Below are positions 135-28,641 of a DNA stretch of 64,000 nucleotides, one piece after another. The notes beneath the pieces are model-generated. The model searched no databases. It had not been told where the DNA came from and worked only from the letters and a program-made list of their open reading frames with translations. Position 1 is the stretch's first letter. Each line of letters opens with the position of its first letter. The stretch lies in the NCBI GenBank assembly GCA_012862495.1, contig BLSG01000172.1, positions 9,711-73,710 of the forward strand. The letters run 5' to 3'. The position numbers and the translations under genes were made by a program. Source of the stretch: Thraustochytrium aureum. Its lineage: Eukaryota.

Positions 135-2057
135 CTACAAGGCCCCTGCCCGCGCCGCCAAGAGCACGTTGTGGAACAGGACCACGACCACCGTGATGTC
201 GTCCAGTTTGCGGTTGCGCGCGATGGCGTGCTCGAGCAACTTTTCAGACGCCCCCTCGGCAAGCTTGGCCAACAGCGACTGCTGCGCCTTTTCGCGAAGC
301 TCCTGCTCACGCCCAACCCCGCTCGCCGCCGCCGCCGCCTCGTGCCCCACAGACGACGCGCTCGAACCATGCTCCTCGTCCGCCATCGCTATCCCGCGCC
401 GGCAGTGCTCTCGCACCTGCGCGGTGACCTCCTCCTTGCCCAAGTTGTCCCAGAGCCCGTCCGAGGCGACCACGACGAAAAGAAAGTCGTTCTCGAACGC
501 AGGCTCGAAGATGTTGACATGCGGCCGGACAATAATCGGCGACTGGACCTCCACCAAAGCGCCGGACCCCTCGGCGAAAACCTTGTGCCCAAAGTTGCCG
601 AAAGCGCGCGTCATATTGAGCGAGTGCGCGCCTTCGAGGGCGACATAGTTGAACCGGTGCGAGGGACCGCGCCGGATGCCGTCGTTGCGGCTCGCCCTCG
701 TCTTGGAGGGCTTGCGCCGAATCCGCGACTGGGCAATGTGCTTGACCCTCAGGTAGTCCTCGTTGTCCAAGTCTGGGATTGGCGTGTCTGCAATCGTCAT
801 GGTCTCCACGTTCGAGCCATCCACGCCCGCCGCTGATGCGCTGTCGTTCGGATTGGGCATCGCGCTGGTGCCTGGCTCGACCCTGCGCATCAGGAACTCG
901 ACGTCCCCCCTGATCATCGTGTTGCGCGGAATCGGGTCCGCCACGACAGTGGCCACGACCTTTTCCACGATCGGTGCGGTGCCATCAGCCACGCTGCCTC
1001 CCGCTGGGCTAGTACTGGAGCTTCCCGCTTCCCCTGCATTCGACGACGGTTCCTCGTCACTCATGGGTTCCTTGGGCACTTGCTCGGGCATGCTCGGAGC
1101 GTCGACCTCGATCGCGAGCCCGCGGTCAATGGCGTCCGCTCCGTCCTCTTCGTCAACGACGTCTGTCATTCCATCGCAGCCCTCCGCGCCAGGATTTACC
1201 GACCCAGAGGCCAGAGCAGCAGCCGTTCCCGCGGTCGCTGCTGTGCCCGCACAGGGACCGGAGGAGGACGCCGAAGAAGAGGACGACGACGACGACGACG
1301 ATGCAGCAGACGCCGAACTCAAAGAGGAAAATTCTTCAGAGGGCATGAGCGACCCAGTCCTTTCCGCTCCAGCCCCAGCGCCAGTGCCCACACCGCCGCT
1401 GCCGTCGACGCCCTCCATCGCCTGCCTCGACGACCCGGAGCCGGCCACGTCGGCATCGGCGCCGCTTGCGAACGCTTCCTCTTGCGGCTGATGCGGCGGC
1501 AAGGCGGAGCGCGCGGAGGCGGTCCCAAACTCCCTGCACCCCGCCTCGCACGTGCTCTTTACATAGCCGCTCCGAGTGACGAGCACGGCTTCAGAGTCAC
1601 CCACGTTCGCGCAGTACAGTCTGTCGTTCGTGAACAGGATGACAGTGGCCGTGCTTCCCTCGTGCGCAGACCGCGGCGCTCGCAAACACCGGCACGGGGA
1701 CTCGCGGTAAAAGCTGCACTTGCACCGCTCGTCGCGAAACCTGGAAAACTCCTCGCCAAGCGTCACGACGTCTTGGTACAACGCTCGATCGCTCTTCAAA
1801 AAACTGTCATGGAGCACCTGCTCTAGCGCCGTGCCGTTCGCCCCTTTCAGCGACTCCTCCAAGCTCTCCAGGTAGTGCTCTACAAGGTAGGATGACGCGC
1901 CTGGCCCGCCGTGCCCGTCAAACACGCCAACGTACAGCGCCGCCTTGTCGTCTCCAACGCGCACCTGCGAGATCTGGAACCTGTCCTCGTTCAGGCCGCC
2001 ATTCTTGAACGTCGGCGCCTTGCTGCTCCCCGTGCAGCCTGCCGCAGCGTACTCCAT
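135..2057 (-). CDS. PP2C/PPM-family Ser/Thr phosphatase with a long low-complexity insertion
   Basis: Motifs NEDR, GVFDGHGG, GSTATV, CANVGDSEAVL, LNMTRAFGN, VVASDGLWD and DDITVVVV in the 640 aa ORF. Confidence 0.9.
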   Translation of the reverse strand: MEYAAAGCTGSSKAPTFKNGGLNEDRFQISQVRVGDDKAALYVGVFDGHGGPGASSYLVEHYLESLEESLKGANGTALEQVLHDSFLKSDRALYQDVVTLGEEFSRFRDERCKCSFYRESPCRCLRAPRSAHEGSTATVILFTNDRLYCANVGDSEAVLVTRSGYVKSTCEAGCREFGTASARSALPPHQPQEEAFASGADADVAGSGSSRQAMEGVDGSGGVGTGAGAGAERTGSLMPSEEFSSLSSASAASSSSSSSSSSASSSGPCAGTAATAGTAAALASGSVNPGAEGCDGMTDVVDEEDGADAIDRGLAIEVDAPSMPEQVPKEPMSDEEPSSNAGEAGSSSTSPAGGSVADGTAPIVEKVVATVVADPIPRNTMIRGDVEFLMRRVEPGTSAMPNPNDSASAAGVDGSNVETMTIADTPIPDLDNEDYLRVKHIAQSRIRRKPSKTRASRNDGIRRGPSHRFNYVALEGAHSLNMTRAFGNFGHKVFAEGSGALVEVQSPIIVRPHVNIFEPAFENDFLFVVVASDGLWDNLGKEEVTAQVREHCRRGIAMADEEHGSSASSVGHEAAAAASGVGREQELREKAQQSLLAKLAEGASEKLLEHAIARNRKLDDITVVVVLFHNVLLAARAGAL

Positions 2058-17746: not shown

Positions 17747-18280
17747 CTAGCCGCTGGAGCGATAGGTACTCTACTTTGGCGCAGAACGAAGCGCACCTGG
17801 CCGGTCCCTATTTTGCGACACCTCTTCGTCCCACACGCCGGACCCTGAATGCTGCGCTCTCCATGCTGCGCTTTTGATAATCCATGTGGTTGGGGGTGTT
17901 ACTCTACGTAGCGCTTTTGATTGAATGCTGCGCTTCCAAGCCCAGCAGGGAAGTGGCCTCCCACAGGCCAGACGCCCGAAGCACAACAGGCTAGACGCTC
18001 ATAAAAAGGAATGATCGGTTTGTTCAGCTGTTCATTGCAGACAGAAGGAAGCCGAACAGCAGAGAAGCGGTGCAACCGCCTCGGCAGACCCGCAACAGAG
18101 ACCCCTGCGCGCGCGCCCCGGAGCGAGCGAGAGTGGCAAGCACCTGCCAACGCAGGGCCGTTGCGCGAGACTCGCGGAGGCGACTCGACCACCGTCGCGG
18201 CACCGCGCGGCGAGTTTGGGCTTTCTTTTTCGGCACCTCGAACCTGGGGAAAAGGGCAGCGGCGCGAAGCGGCGGGAGCG

Positions 18281-19758
18281 ATGGCGGCGGGGAAGAAGGA
18301 CACCGCGGAGGGGAAGAAGCGGGCGGGGGACGATGTGAAGGGCAAGGAGAAGAAGGAGAAGAAGGAGGACGAGGAGGAGAAGGAAGAAAAGGCCGTCGTC
18401 TCGCTCGACGCGGGGGACATCTTCCTCCTCAAGTCGTACGGGCTCGGCGCGTACACGCTGCCGCTGAAAAAGGTCGAGAAGGAGGTCGAAACGATCCTCA
18501 AGCGCGTGGATGAGCTCGCCGGCGTGCGCGAAAGCGATACCGGCCTGGCACCGCCATCCCTGTGGGACATGGTCGCCGACCGGCAGATGATGCAAGAGGA
18601 GCAGCCCCTGCAAGTCGCGCGGTGCACCAAGATCATCAACGCAGACACGGACGACGCCAAGTACTTGATCAACGTCAAGCAGATCGCCAAGTTTGTCGTC
18701 GCGCTCGGCGAGCGCGTCTCGCCCACCGACATCGAAGAGGGCATGCGCGTTGGCGTTGACCGGACAAAGTACAGCATCCAGATCCCGCTGCCGCCCAAGA
18801 TCGATCCCTCGGTGACCATGATGGTGAGTTTTGGCCCTCTCGCATTCCCCGCGCCTCTTGCTTGCGACACGTGCGCGCTGCGCGCTCGCGCCGCTCGAGG
18901 GCTTTGCTGCGCCGCAAGCATTGTGCACTGACACGCGCCTTTTCGCAGACCGTCGAGGAGAAGCCCAACGTAAGCTACAGCGACGTAGGCGGCGCCAAGG
19001 ACTCGCTCGAAAAGCTGCGCGAGGTGGTCGAGCTCCCCCTTCTACACCCCGAGCGCTTCGTAAACCTCGGGATCGACCCGCCCAAGGGCATCCTGCTCTA
19101 CGGACCTCCCGGCACAGGTAAGACACTCTCCGCTCGTGCATGCGCAAACGGAACAGACGCGACGTTCATTCGCGTTATCGGCTCGGAGCTTGTTCAAAAG
19201 TACGTCGGCGAGGGTGCGCGCATGGTCCGCGAGCTCTTCCAGATGGCACGGACCAAGAAGGCCTGCCTCATCTTTTTCGATGAGGTGGACGCCATCGGCG
19301 GCTCGCGCGAGGGCGGGGACGGCAACAACGACAACGAGGTCCAGCGCACGATGCTCGAGATCGTCAACCAGCTCGACGGGTTCGACTCGCGCGGCAACAT
19401 CAAGGTGCTGATGGCAACCAACAGGCCCGACACCCTCGACCCCGCGTTGATGCGGCCCGGCCGGCTCGACCGCAAAGTTGAATTCGGGCTGCCGGACCTG
19501 GAGGGCCGCGCCCATATTTTCAAGATCCACACCAAGAGCATGAACGTGGACAAAAACATCCGGTTCGAGCTTCTTGCTCGCCTCTGCCCCAACACGACCG
19601 GCGCAGAGCTGCGCTCTGTGTGCACAGAGGCGGGTATGTACGCGATCCGCGCGCGCCGAAAGCAGATCACGGAGAAGGACCTTCTCGAGGCCATCAACAA
19701 GGTCATCAAGGGCTACTCCAAGTTTAGCGCCACGCCAAAGTACATGGTGTACAACTGA
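18281..19758 (+). CDS. PSMC2: 26S proteasome AAA-ATPase subunit RPT1; exons 18281-18823 and 18949-19758
   Basis: [31 protein letters not shown] across a GT-AG intron (18824-18948, branch CACTGAC), [19 protein letters not shown]-terminal [11 protein letters not shown]. Confidence 0.97.
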
Positions 19759-20115
19759 GGCAGTGGCTTTTCGCGCGGGGGAGCCCCCGCTCCCGCCGCC
19801 GTTGCGCCCAACACCCAGGCAAATAACCAGCAAAGGATATACCAATTGAGTCCCTCCCCAGTGCTCGCTCCCACAGCCTGGCGGCCTGCGCCGAGGGCGT
19901 CGGTCTCAGCAGTGTGTCACCCGTTCAACGGAATCAACGGCTATTTTCTTGGTCCACCCACCCGCCCGCGCGCTTCCTGCCGCTGCAGGCAACGTCGAGC
20001 GGCAAGGAGGCGCGCTCGCAACACAGGCACTGAGCAGGCAGCAGGCAGGTGGGCAGCGAAGGCGACGTCGAGCGGCAAAGCGCGCCCTGCCTTCAAAACC
20101 AAGGCTGACAGCGAC

Positions 20116-21658
20116 ATGTCCTCAGTGCATCCGGCTCCTCGGAGCAGCACTCCTGAAGCGCTCGACCTGAGCGGGGACCAGGACCCCAAGGAGCGCGACG
20201 AAAACCGGCCGCCCGAGCGCGCTGCAGTGCTTTCAGCGATGTTCATAGGAGCGCCGAGGACATCACTGCCACCAGCGACGCCACAAACCAAGCGGGGGAG
20301 CACCGCAGTGCAGCATGGGTCAATGCCGGCCGCCAGCGACGACGACGACAGTAGCTTCAGAAATGCAGACGCCTGGGGCTCGGGCGGAGATCTTGACCCT
20401 CTGCCGTTGCTTGAGGACGATGAGATCAAGCGATTGAGCATGCGCGAGCGCGTGTGGCAGTTTTTTGAAGACCCCACTTCGAGCCGTGCTGCGCAGTACT
20501 ATTCTCTGGGCTTGATTACACTGATCGCCTTCTCGGTGGTGGTCTTTTGCCTCGAGTCGCTCCCAAGATTTTACGCCTCCAGCAATCACCCAGACATAGG
20601 CGTGTGGGACGAAATCGAGCTTTTCTGCATAGTCGTTTTCACGACCGAGTACGTGCTGCGGCTGGGGTCTTGCCCAAGCAAGTTCAAGTTCCTTTCGAGC
20701 CCTCTCAACGCGGTCGACCTCATTGCCATTGTTCCTTTTTATCTCGAACAATACATCGAGTTCATTTCGGGGGGCAACTCTGCTGTGTTTCGCGTCGTCC
20801 GCCTCGTGCGTGTGTTCCGCATGTTCAAGATCTCGCGGTACCTGAGCTGGATTCGAATTTTTGTGGAGGCCATGGTCCAGTCGGTGCAGCCGCTGACGAT
20901 GCTCTTGTTCGTCATTATGATTGGCTGCGTGTTCTTTAGCACTGGGATGTTTTTGCTTGAGCGCGGCGATTTTGACGAAGCAGAGCTCGTTTACCGTCGC
21001 GAGGACGGCTCGCCGAGCCCCTTCCAGAGCATCCCCGGGACTTTTTGGTGGTGTCTGGTTACCATGACTACGGTGGGCTACGGCGACGTGGTCCCGATCA
21101 CCCCCCTCGGCAAGCTTCTGGCGAGTATCACGAGCTTGACAGGCATCCTTGTTCTGGTAAGTAGGGGACCCTCTCCTCGCGTTGTGGGCAGGCTGTTGCA
21201 TTGATCGCGACCCGCGAGCTCGCCCAGCAAAGCACGAGCACCTTGCGCACTCACTAACGCCCTTGCATTACTCACGCTCGCAACTCGGCTCGCAGGCCAT
21301 TCCCATCACGATCATCAGTACCAACTTCAGCGTCGAGTACGAAAAACTGAAAAAGCACCGGAAGACTCTGCGCGCCCGCGTAAAGCTCCTAAAAAGCCAT
21401 TTCAAAGAGAAGAAAACCGGGCTGGAGGCCATGACCGATGAAATCGAGGACCTCGTCAAGCACGCCTCCGCCGACTTTCTTCGCGAGATCGAGGACCTCG
21501 TCGAGATCTCCAAAGAGGCGATGACGCTCGAGCTGCAGGAACTCGTCAAGATCGCGTATTGCAGCAGGCAGCGCGACCTCGAGCAGGTCCGCAAGGACGA
21601 TCGCACATCCACGGTTTCAAAGGCCGCGGCTGGCGCCACGGCCCAAGCCACGCCGTGA
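20116..21658 (+). CDS. Voltage-gated (Kv/Shaker-like, 6TM) potassium channel; exons 20116-21156 and 21296-21658
   Basis: WQFFEDPTSS, S4 RVVRLVRVFRMFKISR, pore TMTTVGYGD, GILVL|AIPITII across intron 21157-21295 (GTAAGT...CACTAAC...CAG). Confidence 0.93.
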
Positions 21659-23034
21659 CCCGCATTTACAAACCAGATGGCCGCTTCCACCGCAGAAGGG
21701 TCGCCAGCGGCTGAAGCACCGAGCGCGCTCTCCCTGGTCCCGATCAATCGCCAGCGTCGCCCTTGCAACACGATGTCGTCGATCAACATGCAGACAAGTG
21801 CCCGCATGGGCCAACGGTAGAGTACGTTCGCGCCCCTCTTCAGTACTCCCAACCCAGCCGACAGCATGTGCCCGGCGACCTCTGCAACCCGGCGGTCGGT
21901 CCCGGTCGGTCGCGTCCTCGACGGAGCCCAAACGCAACCATTGACTCGGAGGGCAGCCCACGTCGCACTTGGCGTGCCTCTCCGTTCCCTCCGAGGACAG
22001 CACAAGCCGCGTGCAGGCGCACACGCCGTGGACTCGATAGACGCGCGTACCGGGCCACGCCCGGGCTGTCCAATCAAGCTCCACTGCGCCGTGCGCTGCC
22101 TCGTGCGCTGCGCCTGGAGAGGAGCGGCTCCCCGAACTCTCGCCAGAATGGCGCCATGCTCGAGGTGGGCAACGNNNNNNNNNNNNNNNNNNNNNNNNNN
22201 NNNNNNNNNNNNNNNNNNNNNNNNNNNNNNNNNNNNNNNNNNNNNNNNNNNNNNNNNNNNNNNNNNNNNNNNNNNNNNNNNNNNNNNNNNNNNNNNNNNN
22301 NNNNNNNNNNNNNNNNNNNNNNNNNNNNNNNNNNNNNNNNNNNNNNNNNNNNNNNNNNNNNNNNNNNNNNNNNNNNNNNNNNNNNNNNNNNNNNNNNNNN
22401 NNNNNNNNNNNNNNNNNNNNNNNNNNNNNNNNNNNNNNNNNNNNNNNNNNNNNNNNNNNNNNNNNNNNNNNNNNNNNNNNNNNNNNNNNNNNNNNNNNNN
22501 NNNNNNNNNNNNNNNNNNNNNNNNNNNNNNNNNNNNNNNNNNNNNNNNNNNNNNNNNNNNNNNNNNNNNNNNNNNNNNNNNNNNNNNNNNNNNNNNNNNN
22601 NNNNNNNNNNNNNNNNNNNNNNNNNNNNNNNNNNNNNNNNNNNNNNNNNNNNNNNNNNNNNNNNNNNNNNNNNNNNNNNNNNNNNNNNNNNNNNNNNNNN
22701 NNNNNNNNNNNNNNNNNNNNNNNNNNNNNNNNNNNNNNNNNNNNNNNNNNNNNNNNNNNNNNNNNNNNNNNNNNNNNNNNNNNNNNNNNNNNNNNNNNNN
22801 NNNNNNNNNNNNNNNNNNNNNNNNNNNNNNNNNNNNNNNNNNNNNNNNNNNNNNNNNNNNNNNNNNNNNNNNNNNNNNNNNNNNNNNNNNNNNNNNNNNN
22901 NNNNNNNNNNNNNNNNNNNNNNNNNNNNNNNNNNTATCTTGTTATTACAAGACTCGGTAACGCAATGAAAAAACTGACATCGCTTCTTTCTTACAAACTA
23001 TCAACGACAAAACTGCGAAGCTTCCAGAAAAAAC

Positions 23035-23083
23035 TGCCAGGCTGGCAACTTGGGGTCTGCCTGCCGCGACTCCGGCAGACCCC
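23035..23083 (+). repeat. Tandem inverted repeats immediately upstream of the Fanzor ATG
   Basis: TGCCAG-G-CTGGCA (23035-23047) and a 10-bp stem GGGGTCTGCC (23052-23061) / GGCAGACCCC (23074-23083). Confidence 0.7.
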
Positions 23084-23091
23084 TAACGCCG

Positions 23092-24996
23092 ATGGGCAAG
23101 CGCAAAGCGAAGCGGGAAGGCGAGAGCCTTCCTCTGGACCAGCGTACCAGAGACAGCACTGTCGCAGTCCCTGCTTCGCAGAAGAAATGCAAGGTGCCGG
23201 GGCTTATGGATCTTATTCGGGAGGTCGTTCCTGAAGCCAACGCTGCAGCGTACTATGCTGTTCTACTGGCAAACATGTTTGTAACGATGCTTCTCGTTAA
23301 CGCGATTCCCGTCCCTGCGTTGGATAGGCCGTTTTTCGAGCTGTGCATTAGGCGCGTTTCTTCCAGCTGTACTGAACCTACCAAGCAGAGGTGCAGGGAT
23401 ACTGGTATAGAGCACGCTTACCGCTACATCTGGGGTGACCGGGAGAAGCTCGTTAAAACTATATATCACGGGAACATCGTCGGCAACGCTGCAACAGAGA
23501 TGGCGACTGCTGCTGAACTGTACAACACCAGAGCGCTGTACCATCATATGGTCCAGTATGTCAGGTCAAAGTACAATGTATCAAAGGGTCACGCCAAGTT
23601 CATTTGCGGACAAATTCGCAAAAAGGAAGACCAGGACCCGCTCGACTACGAAAGCATACCCGACAAGCTTGACATTCAGGAGTCAGACCTGCACGACATC
23701 ATACTGTCGGAAAGGGACATTTATCTGGAAGCCGTGGCAAACGAGCGGATCGTGGAATATCGTTTCATGCTCATGACTGAAATCCAAGCTCTGAGTACAC
23801 CCGAAAAACGTCTCAAGTCGTTCACAATCATCCCCGAACGTCACCCTGGAAACCAGTTCATGACTCTCGATCAGGAAACGCTATCTCGTCTCTGGAAACG
23901 TCGTCAGCCTAGTCGGTCAGACGCGGAGGCGTGGACACGGTGGAACGACGTTCTTGAAACCTACAAGTCGATCGGTGACTGGTTTAAACTGCCTAAACGC
24001 GGGTCGTCATGGGACAACGGAGCATCACTGAAGACAAACGGATTCGAGTTTCACTTCACGTTCGACAAGAACAAGACCAGACACCCGGTTACCAAGCGAG
24101 CCAAGAAACCCAAGTCGGCCATGACGATCGAGGAAGATGACTGGAACCCCGAGCGCGTGTTCACAAACAAGGCTGGTGTCGATATCCGCGACCCGACCAA
24201 TTTCGTAGCTGCAGACGTCGGGAACTACAACATCCTCACATGCGTTAGCCCGACCCGTGAGACCCACCCCACCGGCTCTCCGAAAATGGACGTACGCAAC
24301 TACAGGAAAATCCGGTACAACCACGAGTCCAAGCGTACGAAGGTCAACGATAAGGTTCGGCTCCTGCAAAAGGACGTCGGCATACGGGCTTACCAGAACG
24401 TACTCTCCCAGCACAGCATGAAGACGACGAATCTGGAATCGCTGAAAGACGCTGTGCTTGCGCGTTGCAAGGTGTATCACGTCCTGTATGCTCACTACAG
24501 CAATCGTCAGTTCCTCAAACTGAAGATGGAGGCTCGGATGGCCGAAAGACGAGCCATTGACAAGATGCTCAACTGGGTCACCTACGGGAAGACCAAGCCT
24601 CTCGGCATAGGCGACTGCTCAAGGACGACGGGGATCAAGGGGACCTCTCCGGGAGGCCCGACGAAAAAAATCAAACGACATGCCATAAAGTCCGGCTACG
24701 AGCTGGTCTTGGTGAACGAGTCGTACACGTCTAAACGCTCAGCGTGTTGCCAAGGTCACGACCTGGTACCAGCGCAGAGACGGGACGCGGACGGGCGTCT
24801 TGAGGACATCCACGGACTACGCATTTGCTCAAAATGTGGTAATACGTGGGACCGGGACGTCAGCGCGGCTATCAACATCTTTGACGTGTTTTACAATTCG
24901 GTGGTGCTAGGGGGGCCACGCCCTCCTCACCTCCTTAAAAAGTGCGATACCGGGCTTCTGGGAAGGACATGGCATTCGCACCTAATCCGTGGTTGA
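23092..24996 (+). CDS. Fanzor (Fanzor1-like, TnpB-derived RuvC RNA-guided endonuclease), ~634 aa
   Basis: RuvC-I FVAADVGNYNILT, IGDCS...KG.SPGGP, RuvC-II VLVNESYTSK, Zn-finger SACC...CSKC, RuvC-III WDRDVSAAINI, tail RPPHL; upstream FTIIP and KTNG motifs resemble Fanzor1 F.l.P and TDG; basic NLS-like MGKRKAKR. Confidence 0.9.
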   Translation: MGKRKAKREGESLPLDQRTRDSTVAVPASQKKCKVPGLMDLIREVVPEANAAAYYAVLLANMFVTMLLVNAIPVPALDRPFFELCIRRVSSSCTEPTKQRCRDTGIEHAYRYIWGDREKLVKTIYHGNIVGNAATEMATAAELYNTRALYHHMVQYVRSKYNVSKGHAKFICGQIRKKEDQDPLDYESIPDKLDIQESDLHDIILSERDIYLEAVANERIVEYRFMLMTEIQALSTPEKRLKSFTIIPERHPGNQFMTLDQETLSRLWKRRQPSRSDAEAWTRWNDVLETYKSIGDWFKLPKRGSSWDNGASLKTNGFEFHFTFDKNKTRHPVTKRAKKPKSAMTIEEDDWNPERVFTNKAGVDIRDPTNFVAADVGNYNILTCVSPTRETHPTGSPKMDVRNYRKIRYNHESKRTKVNDKVRLLQKDVGIRAYQNVLSQHSMKTTNLESLKDAVLARCKVYHVLYAHYSNRQFLKLKMEARMAERRAIDKMLNWVTYGKTKPLGIGDCSRTTGIKGTSPGGPTKKIKRHAIKSGYELVLVNESYTSKRSACCQGHDLVPAQRRDADGRLEDIHGLRICSKCGNTWDRDVSAAINIFDVFYNSVVLGGPRPPHLLKKCDTGLLGRTWHSHLIRG

Positions 24997-25110
24997 GCCT
25001 CCAGCTCCCTCGGGTTAGATAGTTGAACCTGTTCGTTTAACATGCTTTACCCTTGACTGGGTAGTCGCATGACGTGGCTTCCTATCCATTAGTTACGCGA
25101 ACTCTCAACT
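24960..25110 (+). ncRNA. Putative omegaRNA scaffold of the Fanzor (guide predicted in the downstream gap; 5' boundary approximate)
   Basis: Hairpin 24982-25018 spanning the stop codon, hairpin 25041-25071, enclosing stem 25021-25041 / 25092-25110; position matches TnpB/Fanzor omegaRNAs. Confidence 0.65.
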
Positions 25111-26419
25111 NNNNNNNNNNNNNNNNNNNNNNNNNNNNNNNNNNNNNNNNNNNNNNNNNNNNNNNNNNNNNNNNNNNNNNNNNNNNNNNNNNNNNNNNNN
25201 NNNNNNNNNNNNNNNNNNNNNNNNNNNNNNNNNNNNNNNNNNNNNNNNNNNNNNNNNNNNNNNNNNNNNNNNNNNNNNNNNNNNNNNNNNNNNNNNNNNN
25301 NNNNNNNNNNNNNNNNNNNNNNNNNNNNNNNNNNNNNNNNNNNNNNNNNNNNNNNNNNNNNNNNNNNNNNNNNNNNNNNNNNNNNNNNNNNNNNNNNNNN
25401 NNNNNNNNNNNNNNNNNNNNNNNNNNNNNNNNNNNNNNNNNNNNNNNNNNNNNNNNNNNNNNNNNNNNNNNNNNNNNNNNNNNNNNNNNNNNNNNNNNNN
25501 NNNNNNNNNNNNNNNNNNNNNNNNNNNNNNNNNNNNNNNNNNNNNNNNNNNNNNNNNNNNNNNNNNNNNNNNNNNNNNNNNNNNNNNNNNNNNNNNNNNN
25601 NNNNNNNNNNNNNNNNNNNNNNNNNNNNNNNNNNNNNNNNNNNNNNNNNNNNNNNNNNNNNNNNNNNNNNNNNNNNNNNNNNNNNNNNNNNNNNNNNNNN
25701 NNNNNNNNNNNNNNNNNNNNNNNNNNNNNNNNNNNNNNNNNNNNNNNNNNNNNNNNNNNNNNNNNNNNNNNNNNNNNNNNNNNNNNNNNNNNNNNNNNNN
25801 CAAAGAGTTGGCCCAAGCAACTTGCTCACAAAGCAGTGTCCTGGATCAAGTGAACGAACGCGGACCTTGCGAAAGAATCACGAACCAAGGCCGAAGTTGT
25901 TTGAGCACCTTGCCATGCAAAACCGTCGCTTGGTGGATAGATAGATCGGTTGGCGCAACGCTGTATGGTCGCGCCGCCGCAATTCCAATGCGTCTTGGTC
26001 TTGTTTCACGTTCGTCATTCTGCCTCTCCTACAAGATGCTCCCCGCTGCTTTTGCTTTCTACACCGGCCTAGAAGAGACTGCAATCGGATTGATGTGCAT
26101 ACGCTTTGCTCAACTGCGCACGGCTTTGGCGCGACGGTCGTTGTGGCACTATCGCTCACGCTGCATTCGTACACGCCCGTGCTTGGTATTCGCACAAAGA
26201 CTTGGCCGCGCGGTCCGACCACTGCTCGACGCTGCAACGACCCTGCCAAAGAGAACGCGACGCAGCTGCAGCGTCTCGCACTCACACCATAGCCCGTGGA
26301 GCTGTCGCCTCCTTCACCTTTGAGATGCATTTGGCTTCCTCAAGGCCTCGACTCGGGCAATTGCATCCAGTGTACTGGTGTAGAAGGAGACAGAGGACGT
26401 ACCTGAGCTGGATTGTGTG

Positions 26420-28641
26420 TTAATGCTCACAGAGGTTTACGTTACGCAGGTTCCAGTTGCCCTTGTAGCGGCTGCGCTCCTGCATGAGCGCCAATCGATG
26501 CGCTTGAGCTTGTTCGAGCGTCATCGTGCTGCGCTGGTCCGGCACCTCCTGCGTTGAAACGATACGCTGCGACGGGTCCACCACAAAGAAGGCAACTACG
26601 CGCCGGCGGGCGGGGCTTGCGCCCCGGTTCACCATCTTGCTGATCCGGTGGATGTGGGAGTTCGGAAAGACAACCAAGCGGCCTGCTGGCGTGGCCACTC
26701 GCCCCAACGGCACAACCCCTGACCCTATAATGTCAAGCCTCACATCGCAGTCCAAGCTCTCCCGTTCCTCCCCACGGCGAACGAAATGCCGCGCGTAATT
26801 ATGGTCGCTTTCCGTGAAAGCCCGTTTGAACATGATGTCTCCGCCCTCGATAATCTCGTCGCGGTCCAGGACGAAAAGGCAGGTTGCTGCAATCTTCTCG
26901 TGGCTCATGCCCTCGACATGCCAAACGCCCTCGTACTCATCACCCGGCTTGAGCTCATAGTCGACGATCTTCACCATCGCTTGGAGGGCCGTGCTGCGCA
27001 GAGAGAAACGCGTCTTGGCGCAGTGGGTCTCCCACTGGTGCTTCTCACCAGGGTTCAGAGGATCGAAGTTGCGTCCATACCACAACACCGCCTCGAGCCG
27101 CGGTAGCGCGATTTCTAGCAGGCCAGCAAGCTGCGCGTACAGCTTGAAGTGGTCCCGTGCCGGCCGCAGGCCGTTGATGTCGCCTCGGACAGATGCAGCG
27201 CCGTTTGGGCTGATGTCAAAGTACGTCGCGAGCCACTGGTACCTAGAAAACTCAAACGTGCGGCCCCACAAGTCATGCCCGACCGTTGGGGGTATCGCGC
27301 CAAGGTCGTCGGAAGGCTCAAAAGGGGACTCGCCTCTCACATATGGGTACATGGAAGGGTGCNNNNNNNNNNNNNNNNNNNNNNNNNNNNNNNNNNNNNN
27401 NNNNNNNNNNNNNNNNNNNNNNNNNNNNNNNNNNNNNNNNNNNNNNNNNNNNNNNNNNNNNNNNNNNNNNNNNNNNNNNNNNNNNNNNNNNNNNNNNNNN
27501 NNNNNNNNNNNNNNNNNNNNNNNNNNNNNNNNNNNNNNNNNNNNNNNNNNNNNNNNNNNNNNNNNNNNNNNNNNNNNNNNNNNNNNNNNNNNNNNNNNNN
27601 NNNNNNNNNNNNNNNNNNNNNNNNNNNNNNNNNNNNNNNNNNNNNNNNNNNNNNNNNNNNNNNNNNNNNNNNNNNGACCTTGCCGTCGCTGCCCGGGTGG
27701 TAATCGGGCCCCGAGAGGCTTGCCAGAGCATCAACCTCGTCGTTCAGGCTGACGATCGACGCGGCCGGGACCACGCCGTCGGCCCACAGCACCCCCTCTT
27801 TGACGACTTGCTGTTCGTGCCGCCGGACGACTGCCTCCATGGCCCTGAAGCCAACCATTCGCAACCGCTCTGGCCGCGGAAAGCCAAAGGAGAGCGGCAC
27901 GCTGAGCGTGACCTCGAGCGGGTCCTGAGATACGCGGAAAACCTCGCCGACGCTCCCTTCGACGGCTTCGTCCGGGCCGTCTGGGCGATGGCGCCGCATA
28001 CAATCCTTGCTGAAACGGTAGCGGTGCGGTGCTACGCGAAGCCTTGTCACGTCAACAGTGTCGCCCACGGCAACTTGCTCGGCTATTCCGGCGTCGTTCA
28101 ACTGCGCCTGATTCAGGGTGACCTTGGCCAGGCCAAAAGCCATCATAGTGCGCTCCCGCTGCCGATCGATGAGGCCTCGGCGGGGGCGCAGAAGCTCTCC
28201 TCTGAATGGCGGCGCTACTTCTACGATGCTCGTCAAGACGACCTGGACCAGGCGGGCGTTTTCGAACACGGCAACTAGGGGACCTCCGTCGCGCCCGCCA
28301 TCAACGTCTTGGTCTCCACCCTCCTCGCCCTCATCGATATCTTCGTGCGCGGCCGCAAAGGTCGCCCCAATGAACGGGCTTGTGTCGCCGAACTCGGCTC
28401 CGTCGATCAACTCCTTGAACGCTGCAGAATTGTTAGTGGAGTTGACTTGGCTGACAAATTCGGACACGTACTTGGCCTGGTCGCCCCACCACACCTCCGC
28501 AGCTTGGTTTGCCGCATGGTGTAGCGCGCGACAAGCCAGCAGAGCTCCACGCCGGACCTCATGTTGCGCTAGCCACGACAGCACATGCTCCGCAACCCAC
28601 GCGTGCCTCACCAGCACGGGCGCGTCGACCCTTCGCCTCAT
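26420..28641 (-). CDS. F-box-like N-terminus + DUF4246 (2OG-Fe(II) oxygenase-like) protein; gap 27363-27675
   Basis: DYHPGSDGKV...HPSMYPYV, YQWLATYF, VKIVDYELKPGDEYEGVWHVEGMSHEKIAAT, GRLVVFPNSHIHRI, RRVVAFFVVDP, HRLALMQER; N-terminal EHVLSWL...LLACRALH. Confidence 0.8.

Follow-up and report, generated by a model that had tools for sequence, protein, structure and literature searches.

The window analysed here, 64,000 nucleotides of Thraustochytrium aureum contig BLSG01000172.1, is a high-GC eukaryotic region with 16 assembly gaps, one break every few kb. A scaftig of 2176 bp (22935–25110, forward strand), with an assembly gap on either side, carries the entire visible Fanzor element. Its GC content is 52.9%, compared to 58–66% in the other scaftigs of the window, and no second copy of it was found within the window. 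An intron-less ORF of 634 amino acids occupies 23092–24996 on the forward strand and ends in a TGA at 24994–24996. The neighbourhood contains an AAA ATPase host gene (18011–19758), which we take from its translation to resemble a proteasome subunit, a presumably potassium-channel-like host gene (19846–21658, likewise labelled from its translation) and, past the gap at 25111–25800, a DUF4246 host gene (26420–27352); the DUF4246 gene is convergent with the Fanzor gene. Because assembly breaks are so frequent, the right edge at 25110 is not necessarily the end of the element.

The 634-aa protein contains a Cas12f1-like_TNB domain (Pfam, E 3.5e-11), and the only solved relative recovered by sequence is PpFz1 (E 0.045 with the single sequence, 1.4e-6 as a profile). 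A fold search using a low-confidence model (mean pLDDT 50.9, with the C-terminal half low) placed Fanzor1 chains at ranks 1–7 (E 1.4e-3 to 1.3e-2), followed by unrelated folds from rank 8 (E 1.1). Its atlas look-alikes are TNB/DUF8286 clusters from both giant viruses and eukaryotes. The RuvC triad (D375, E543, D589) is present and intact, the zinc ligands are C552, C553, C579 and C582, the N-terminus is basic, and the length falls in the Fanzor1 size range of 600–700 aa. The Fanzor1 motif, D-X(125,275)-[TS][TS]-X-X-C4 zinc finger-X(5,50)-RD (PMC3627910), is found as D375, T546-S547, cysteines 552/553/579/582 and R588-D589. The RuvC glutamate of Fanzor1 is described as lying six residues ahead of the zinc finger (PMC10711439); E543 lies six residues ahead of S550, which occupies the first zinc-finger cysteine position. 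Judged by its sequence and predicted fold, the ORF product is a Fanzor1-type nuclease, divergent but with its D-E-D triad intact, and RNA-guided, motif-dependent DNA cutting is predicted for it by analogy.

We call the protein divergent because DPG (RuvC-I) and TDG (WED), which are typical but non-strict Fanzor1 signatures (PMC10711439), are replaced by DVG and TNG; in addition, SxCC stands in place of the first CxxC. Of 49 subfamily proteins, 29 have TNG, 4 have TDG and 16 match neither; in the viral set, 52 of the 55 full-length rows carry TDG. DPG is present in 19/49 subfamily proteins and DVG in 8/49, while the SxCC first cysteine pair characterizes 33/49 subfamily proteins versus none of the 55 viral rows. 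The nearest homologs (P0001–P0005) are 38–63% identical to the window protein, and a wider profile search with a cut-off of E 1e-30 brought in 76 proteins. In a FastTree phylogeny of 56 rows (the window protein, its relative L001, 37 database proteins and 17 viral loci), the subfamily forms its own branch apart from the 17 viral Fanzor1 rows; identity to solved Fanzor1 proteins is 11–16%. The C-terminal tails of the homologs vary in length and sequence, with a G-T-W-like motif in some, and therefore lend no indirect support to RNA conservation. Several subfamily members (among P0001–P0050) end in a G-T-W-x-x-x-W tail. Two members of the cluster of P0012, itself a Fanzor of this subfamily, are P0161 and P0162, short partial proteins from 248–517-nt contigs under a bacterial species name, a label that likely reflects contamination.

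A highly structured stretch sits at the 3′ end of the ORF and overlaps the stop codon. A preliminary description of the locus had paired 24960–25110 by hand and proposed it as a candidate omegaRNA scaffold; the sequence and coordinates are as described there, including the TGA. In the overall predicted fold, a hairpin is joined by a 2-nt linker to a three-way junction (25021–25110). Hairpin 1 (24982–25018) spans the stop codon, carries UCC at 24986–24988 and is the candidate first stem-loop of the omegaRNA; all 14 of its pairs (8+2+4) have probabilities of 0.98–1.0, and alone it folds with z −4.4 (0/300 shuffles). Hairpin 2 (25041–25071) is the first arm of the junction and has 11 pairs with probabilities of 0.80–0.96; its core, 25042–25071, gives z −4.0 (1/300 shuffles). 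Both hairpins had been drawn correctly by hand. The enclosing stem survives in its two outer segments, 25021–25026/25105–25110 and 25031–25035/25098–25102 (probability 0.59–0.76), which form a closing helix (25021–25035/25098–25110) reaching exactly to the last sequenced base. The TAAC/GTTA segment proposed inside it (25038–25041/25092–25095) drops to 0.05–0.08, since those 3′ bases instead form a fourth helix that had been overlooked. This helix (25073–25097, pairing 25073–25079 with 25091–25097 at probability 0.54–0.77) lies flush on the closing helix, and it is what turns the proposed multi-way junction into a three-way one. Its 11-nt loop contains a second CUAUCC motif (25082–25087). A further predicted 6-bp stem within the ORF (24942–24981, forward strand), seen in both the MFE and centroid structures, adjoins hairpin 1 and may or may not belong to the guide RNA. 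A pseudoknot between 25018–25022 and 25082–25086 was discarded: it is a single GAUAG/CUAUC 5-bp complement at chance level and clashes with two helices. Rfam yielded no match (best E 7.5).

The stretch folds better than shuffled sequence, as the preliminary description had anticipated. For the interval it delimited, 24960–25110, z is −2.68 (3/200 shuffles), and for the 129 nt of 24982–25110 on the forward strand it is −5.1 to −5.4 (0/300 shuffles), versus −2.5 on the reverse strand. As this trimming was made after viewing the fold, we computed sliding-window controls. The trimmed interval has the lowest z of 103 sliding 129-nt windows in the element, five of which reach −3. Among 374 host windows (N-free, forward strand, bases 1–59728), none reaches −4 and the minimum is −3.83. 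The same junction layout ending at the last base arose in 13 of 1000 shuffles. A second structured zone surrounds the start codon (23022–23210, z −3.4 to −3.9 in 129-nt windows), with a perfect 10-bp inverted repeat (23052–23061/23074–23083) just 5′ of the ATG.

Published Fanzor1 RNAs are 75–150 nt long; their first stem-loop, of 7 bp, is constant, and the structure that follows it varies (PMC11423790). The seven base pairs stand behind a UC/UCC start (PMC11423790; PMC10432273), and by eye the omegaRNAs of three species in supplementary file 5 of PMC10432273 start with a short W-W-U-C-C-like motif. The scaffolds are followed by 14–15 variable bases (PMC10432273), conservation at Fanzor extends into the ORF (Jiang 2023, PMC10530073), and the transposon ends are included in the RNAs (PMC10711439). 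In the window, 125 nt separate the start of the UCC from the last base (24986–25110).

As a reference, we collected 88 giant-virus loci (L002–L089) via the zinc-finger motif, which gave 77 non-redundant 3′ regions. These loci are distant from the window protein, at 17–86 bits versus 347 for L001. A first stem-loop that fits a strict descriptor (UC, 7 bp, CG at the end of the loop) is found in 60/77 regions, one of them at an implausible place. A common 3′ end is shared by 62 of the 77, and past it the commonest base drops from 94–100% to 35%. We aligned 31 of these 62, picked for spread. Their consensus comprises the first stem-loop, a closing helix that runs to the last conserved base, an inner hairpin and a flush helix; this structure is 92.7% paired over the 31 rows, and covariation exceeds that of 500/500 shuffles, in a test inflated by the relatedness of the sequences, and that of all slid controls. 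The viral scaffolds are 94–141 nt long and 47 of 50 begin inside the ORF. All 31 rows of this alignment (A3, from L003–L089) also have an invariant C-G contact from the 5′ UC to the first loop. One giant-virus record holds four longer Fanzor copies (L006, L013, L016 and L035; ~940 aa stop to stop) with a different 3′ end that lacks the canonical first stem-loop.

Searched with the viral covariance model, the window yields no hit up to E 10, and the strict first-stem-loop descriptor also misses. A relaxed match at 24986 has one mismatch in seven positions, costs 4.9 kcal/mol and has a probability below 0.001; matches of this kind are frequent by chance (3.5 per kb). Because the canonical first stem-loop is missing, the 5′ start of the candidate RNA is uncertain, and we do not consider the candidate a canonical omegaRNA, only one that would work like it. 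The scaffold proposal of the preliminary description is partly supported: the ORF is of Fanzor1 type, and the candidate agrees in its position, its length and its junction layout with Fanzor1 omegaRNAs, both those published (PMC10432273, PMC11423790, PMC10711439) and those inferred from the viral loci.

Conservation and covariation among homologous loci, to which the preliminary description had also looked, could be compared with distant loci only, and there covariance models and local alignment were negative. The nearest relative with DNA, L001, is the only subfamily locus found, with a protein 33% identical to that of the window. No loci of further relatives appeared in the viral, metagenome and prokaryote collections, and other motif scans found two unrelated loci. 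A covariance model of the window searched against 18 loci (L001 and 17 viral loci) matched none of them (best E among the 18, 0.21). The 3′ region of L001 aligns locally no better than chance (548/2000 shuffles score as high) and shows no significant structure (best z −1.8 of 24 windows). The only relaxed first-stem-loop match in L001 lies 165 nt past the stop and is preceded by GUGGC..CUAUCC, a motif that resembles window 25074–25087. About 70 nt past the L001 Fanzor stop lies a 5-bp hairpin with a 7-nt loop (1407–1423, reverse strand), presumably similar to a tRNA T-arm or polymerase III B-box; ARAGORN reported no tRNA in L001.

Nine sequencing runs contain part of the element, and three of them, which we can only guess to be RNA, contain at least two thirds of it. 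We compared contigs from four of the nine (X1–X4, of which X4 is the sole DNA-type run) with the scaftig. Over the candidate RNA, the four contigs differ by 0–1 letters and are therefore uninformative on covariation. Contigs X1, X2 and X3 run on unbroken for 1426, 278 and 1417 nt past 25110, thereby presenting a single continuation and displaying no variable flank. The X4 contig, with a depth of 5.8, extends 2 nt beyond 25110 and no further, a weak hint of a boundary near there. The X1–X3 contigs do not cover 22935–23080, which proves nothing. The four runs also contain the ORF in two or more versions of comparable depth, with 0–1 versus 10 letters differing in 23991–24147, as well as a more distant paralogous Fanzor family whose 3′ end is unmatched at 80% likeness.

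The visible ends of the scaftig share no terminal inverted repeat, as 478 of 2000 shuffles score as high, and a TIR between these ends was rejected. Two bases inside the left edge is a perfect 6-bp hairpin (22937–22952, forward strand), which may be a left-end signal. Such a stem is present at one of 30 scaftig edges, against a background of 127/14122 positions (0.9%). No convincing asymmetric inverted repeat of this hairpin was found in the visible 3′ region, both ends bordering gaps. Together, the left-edge hairpin and the closing helix that finishes on the right edge suggest, without proving, that the scaftig is a near-complete element of a non-TIR type.

We give a probability of roughly 65% to the reading that 24982–25110 is the omegaRNA scaffold of a divergent Fanzor1, with a guide starting within ~3 bases of 25110. 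This prediction draws on the Fanzor1 ORF and its catalytic residues, on a predicted fold stronger than in shuffled sequence and on a layout that distant Fanzor1 loci share. By analogy with the viral loci and PMC10432273, the unsequenced positions 25111–25130 would then hold the last 0–3 bases of the scaffold and a guide of ~15 nt. By analogy with characterised Fanzor1 systems we infer expression as a small RNA: a transcript would read through the right end and be trimmed to about 140–150 nt starting near 24980. The protein would bind at the first hairpin and at the foot of the closing helix, and the guide would be supplied by the following ~15 bases, transcribed from host DNA next to the insertion. 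Matching DNA beside a short motif, that is, alleles without the element, could then receive a guided double-strand cut, and cutting of these alleles would favour retention or homing of the element.

A different start would shift this picture. If the omegaRNA began at CUAUCC 25082–25087, most of the scaffold and the guide would lie deeper in the gap, and the upstream folds would represent either an extension of the precursor or an element of the 3′ UTR. The motif resembles the W-W-U-C-C-like start seen by eye in three Fanzor1 species (PMC10432273), the loop of the site ends in CG, and homolog contigs of 2337–2386 nt exceed, in their non-coding DNA, the 271 nt that can be seen in the window; the L001 candidate 165 nt past its stop, after a similar motif, also keeps the idea alive. 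We nevertheless consider such a start unlikely. The window site has three mismatches in seven pairs, a class of match that occurs 6.5 times per kb, and imposing it would cost 8.5 kcal/mol and disrupt the junction (pair probability 0.04). The resemblance to L001 was noticed post hoc and lacks significance, and the downstream region of L001 folds no better than shuffles.

Quite unlikely, too, is a role without a guide, with the folds marking, as single-stranded DNA, the ends of a mobile element that is TIR-less, rolling-circle or Helitron2-like, or serving as an mRNA 3′ UTR or processing structure. Fanzor1 elements carried by Helitron2 and bearing a hairpin at each end are known (PMC3627910), which would fit the lack of a TIR and the rare hairpin at the left edge, and the X1–X3 contigs extend far past 25110. 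Yet the fold is far stronger on the sense strand and depends on G-U pairs, and the left hairpin has no convincing asymmetric counterpart in the 3′ region. An end signal and a scaffold are moreover compatible, given that Fanzor1 RNAs include transposon ends (PMC10711439), and an intact nuclease needs a guide RNA, for which the 3′ end offers the only strongly structured non-coding stretch in view. That the folding is a chance feature of a single sequence beside a contig edge strikes us as very improbable. Such a view can point to one sequence without covariation, to an interval trimmed after viewing, and to the z of only −2.68 for 24960–25110 when elsewhere in the element z falls to −3.4 to −3.9. 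Against it stand the host windows, none of which reaches −4, the four separate helices, with each sub-region significant by itself, and a location exactly as for Fanzor1 RNAs.

If the scaffold reading is right, the locus would add one more intact, apparently expressed Fanzor1 system of published design, on a branch far from the compared giant-virus proteins and 11–16% identical to the solved ones. It would also probe how fixed the 7-bp first stem-loop is, and the known picture of Fanzor action would be unchanged. It is tempting to speculate further that a distinct Fanzor1 subfamily (about 50 representatives at 50% clustering, with TNG, DVG/DPG and an SxCC zinc knuckle) replaces the 7-bp stem-loop with a longer hairpin that buries UCC, and travels in a TIR-less element with a hairpin at its left end. 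We hold this extension to be doubtful. Were it true, it would mean a new RNA–protein interface among eukaryotic programmable nucleases.

Among named systems, the Helitron2-borne CRe-1, 2 and 3 (Bao and Jurka 2013, PMC3627910) resemble the window element in having a 5′-end hairpin, no TIR and Fanzor as their only gene; the window element differs in its intron-less gene and in lacking an asymmetric terminal repeat in the visible sequence. SpuFz1 and PpFz1 (PDB 8gkh, 9cf0) share the Fanzor1 fold and a final stem that ends at the guide. However, their omegaRNAs are shorter (75–90 nt, with one stem past the first), and Spu-1 elements have 30-nt inverted repeats, of which none is visible here.

GtFz1 from Guillardia theta (PDB 9cer) is the top fold match, by a hair over PpFz1 and SpuFz1, although its protein is only 11% identical to that of the window by structural alignment. 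Its RNA is 150 nt long with extra stem-loops past the first (PMC11423790) and overlaps 17 codons of its ORF (PMC10432273), and the window candidate would likewise be about that long, overlaps the ORF end and has further predicted stem-loops. By eye, in the GtFz1 entry of supplementary file 5, the RNA start resembles window 24979–24989, with UCC inside the first stem, and an 8-mer of window 25011–25018 recurs at a similar offset, though an 8-mer alone is not significant between 150-nt sequences. In GtFz1, this 8-mer appears to open the second stem, whereas the window equivalent (25012–25016/25026–25030) has a probability of ~0 and would cost 14 kcal/mol, and is ruled out on energy. The first stems also differ, with 8+2+4 pairs in the window and 7 in GtFz1.

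The giant-virus Fanzor1 RNAs keep the UC/7-bp/loop-CG stem-loop, and their proteins TDG and CxxC, all of which the window lacks. Nevertheless, like the window candidate, they start inside the ORF, have a similar length and possess a three-way junction, with the scaffold finishing at the closing helix. Their published counterpart is the three-stem reRNA of SfAV Fanzor1 (Yoon 2023, PMC10711439).
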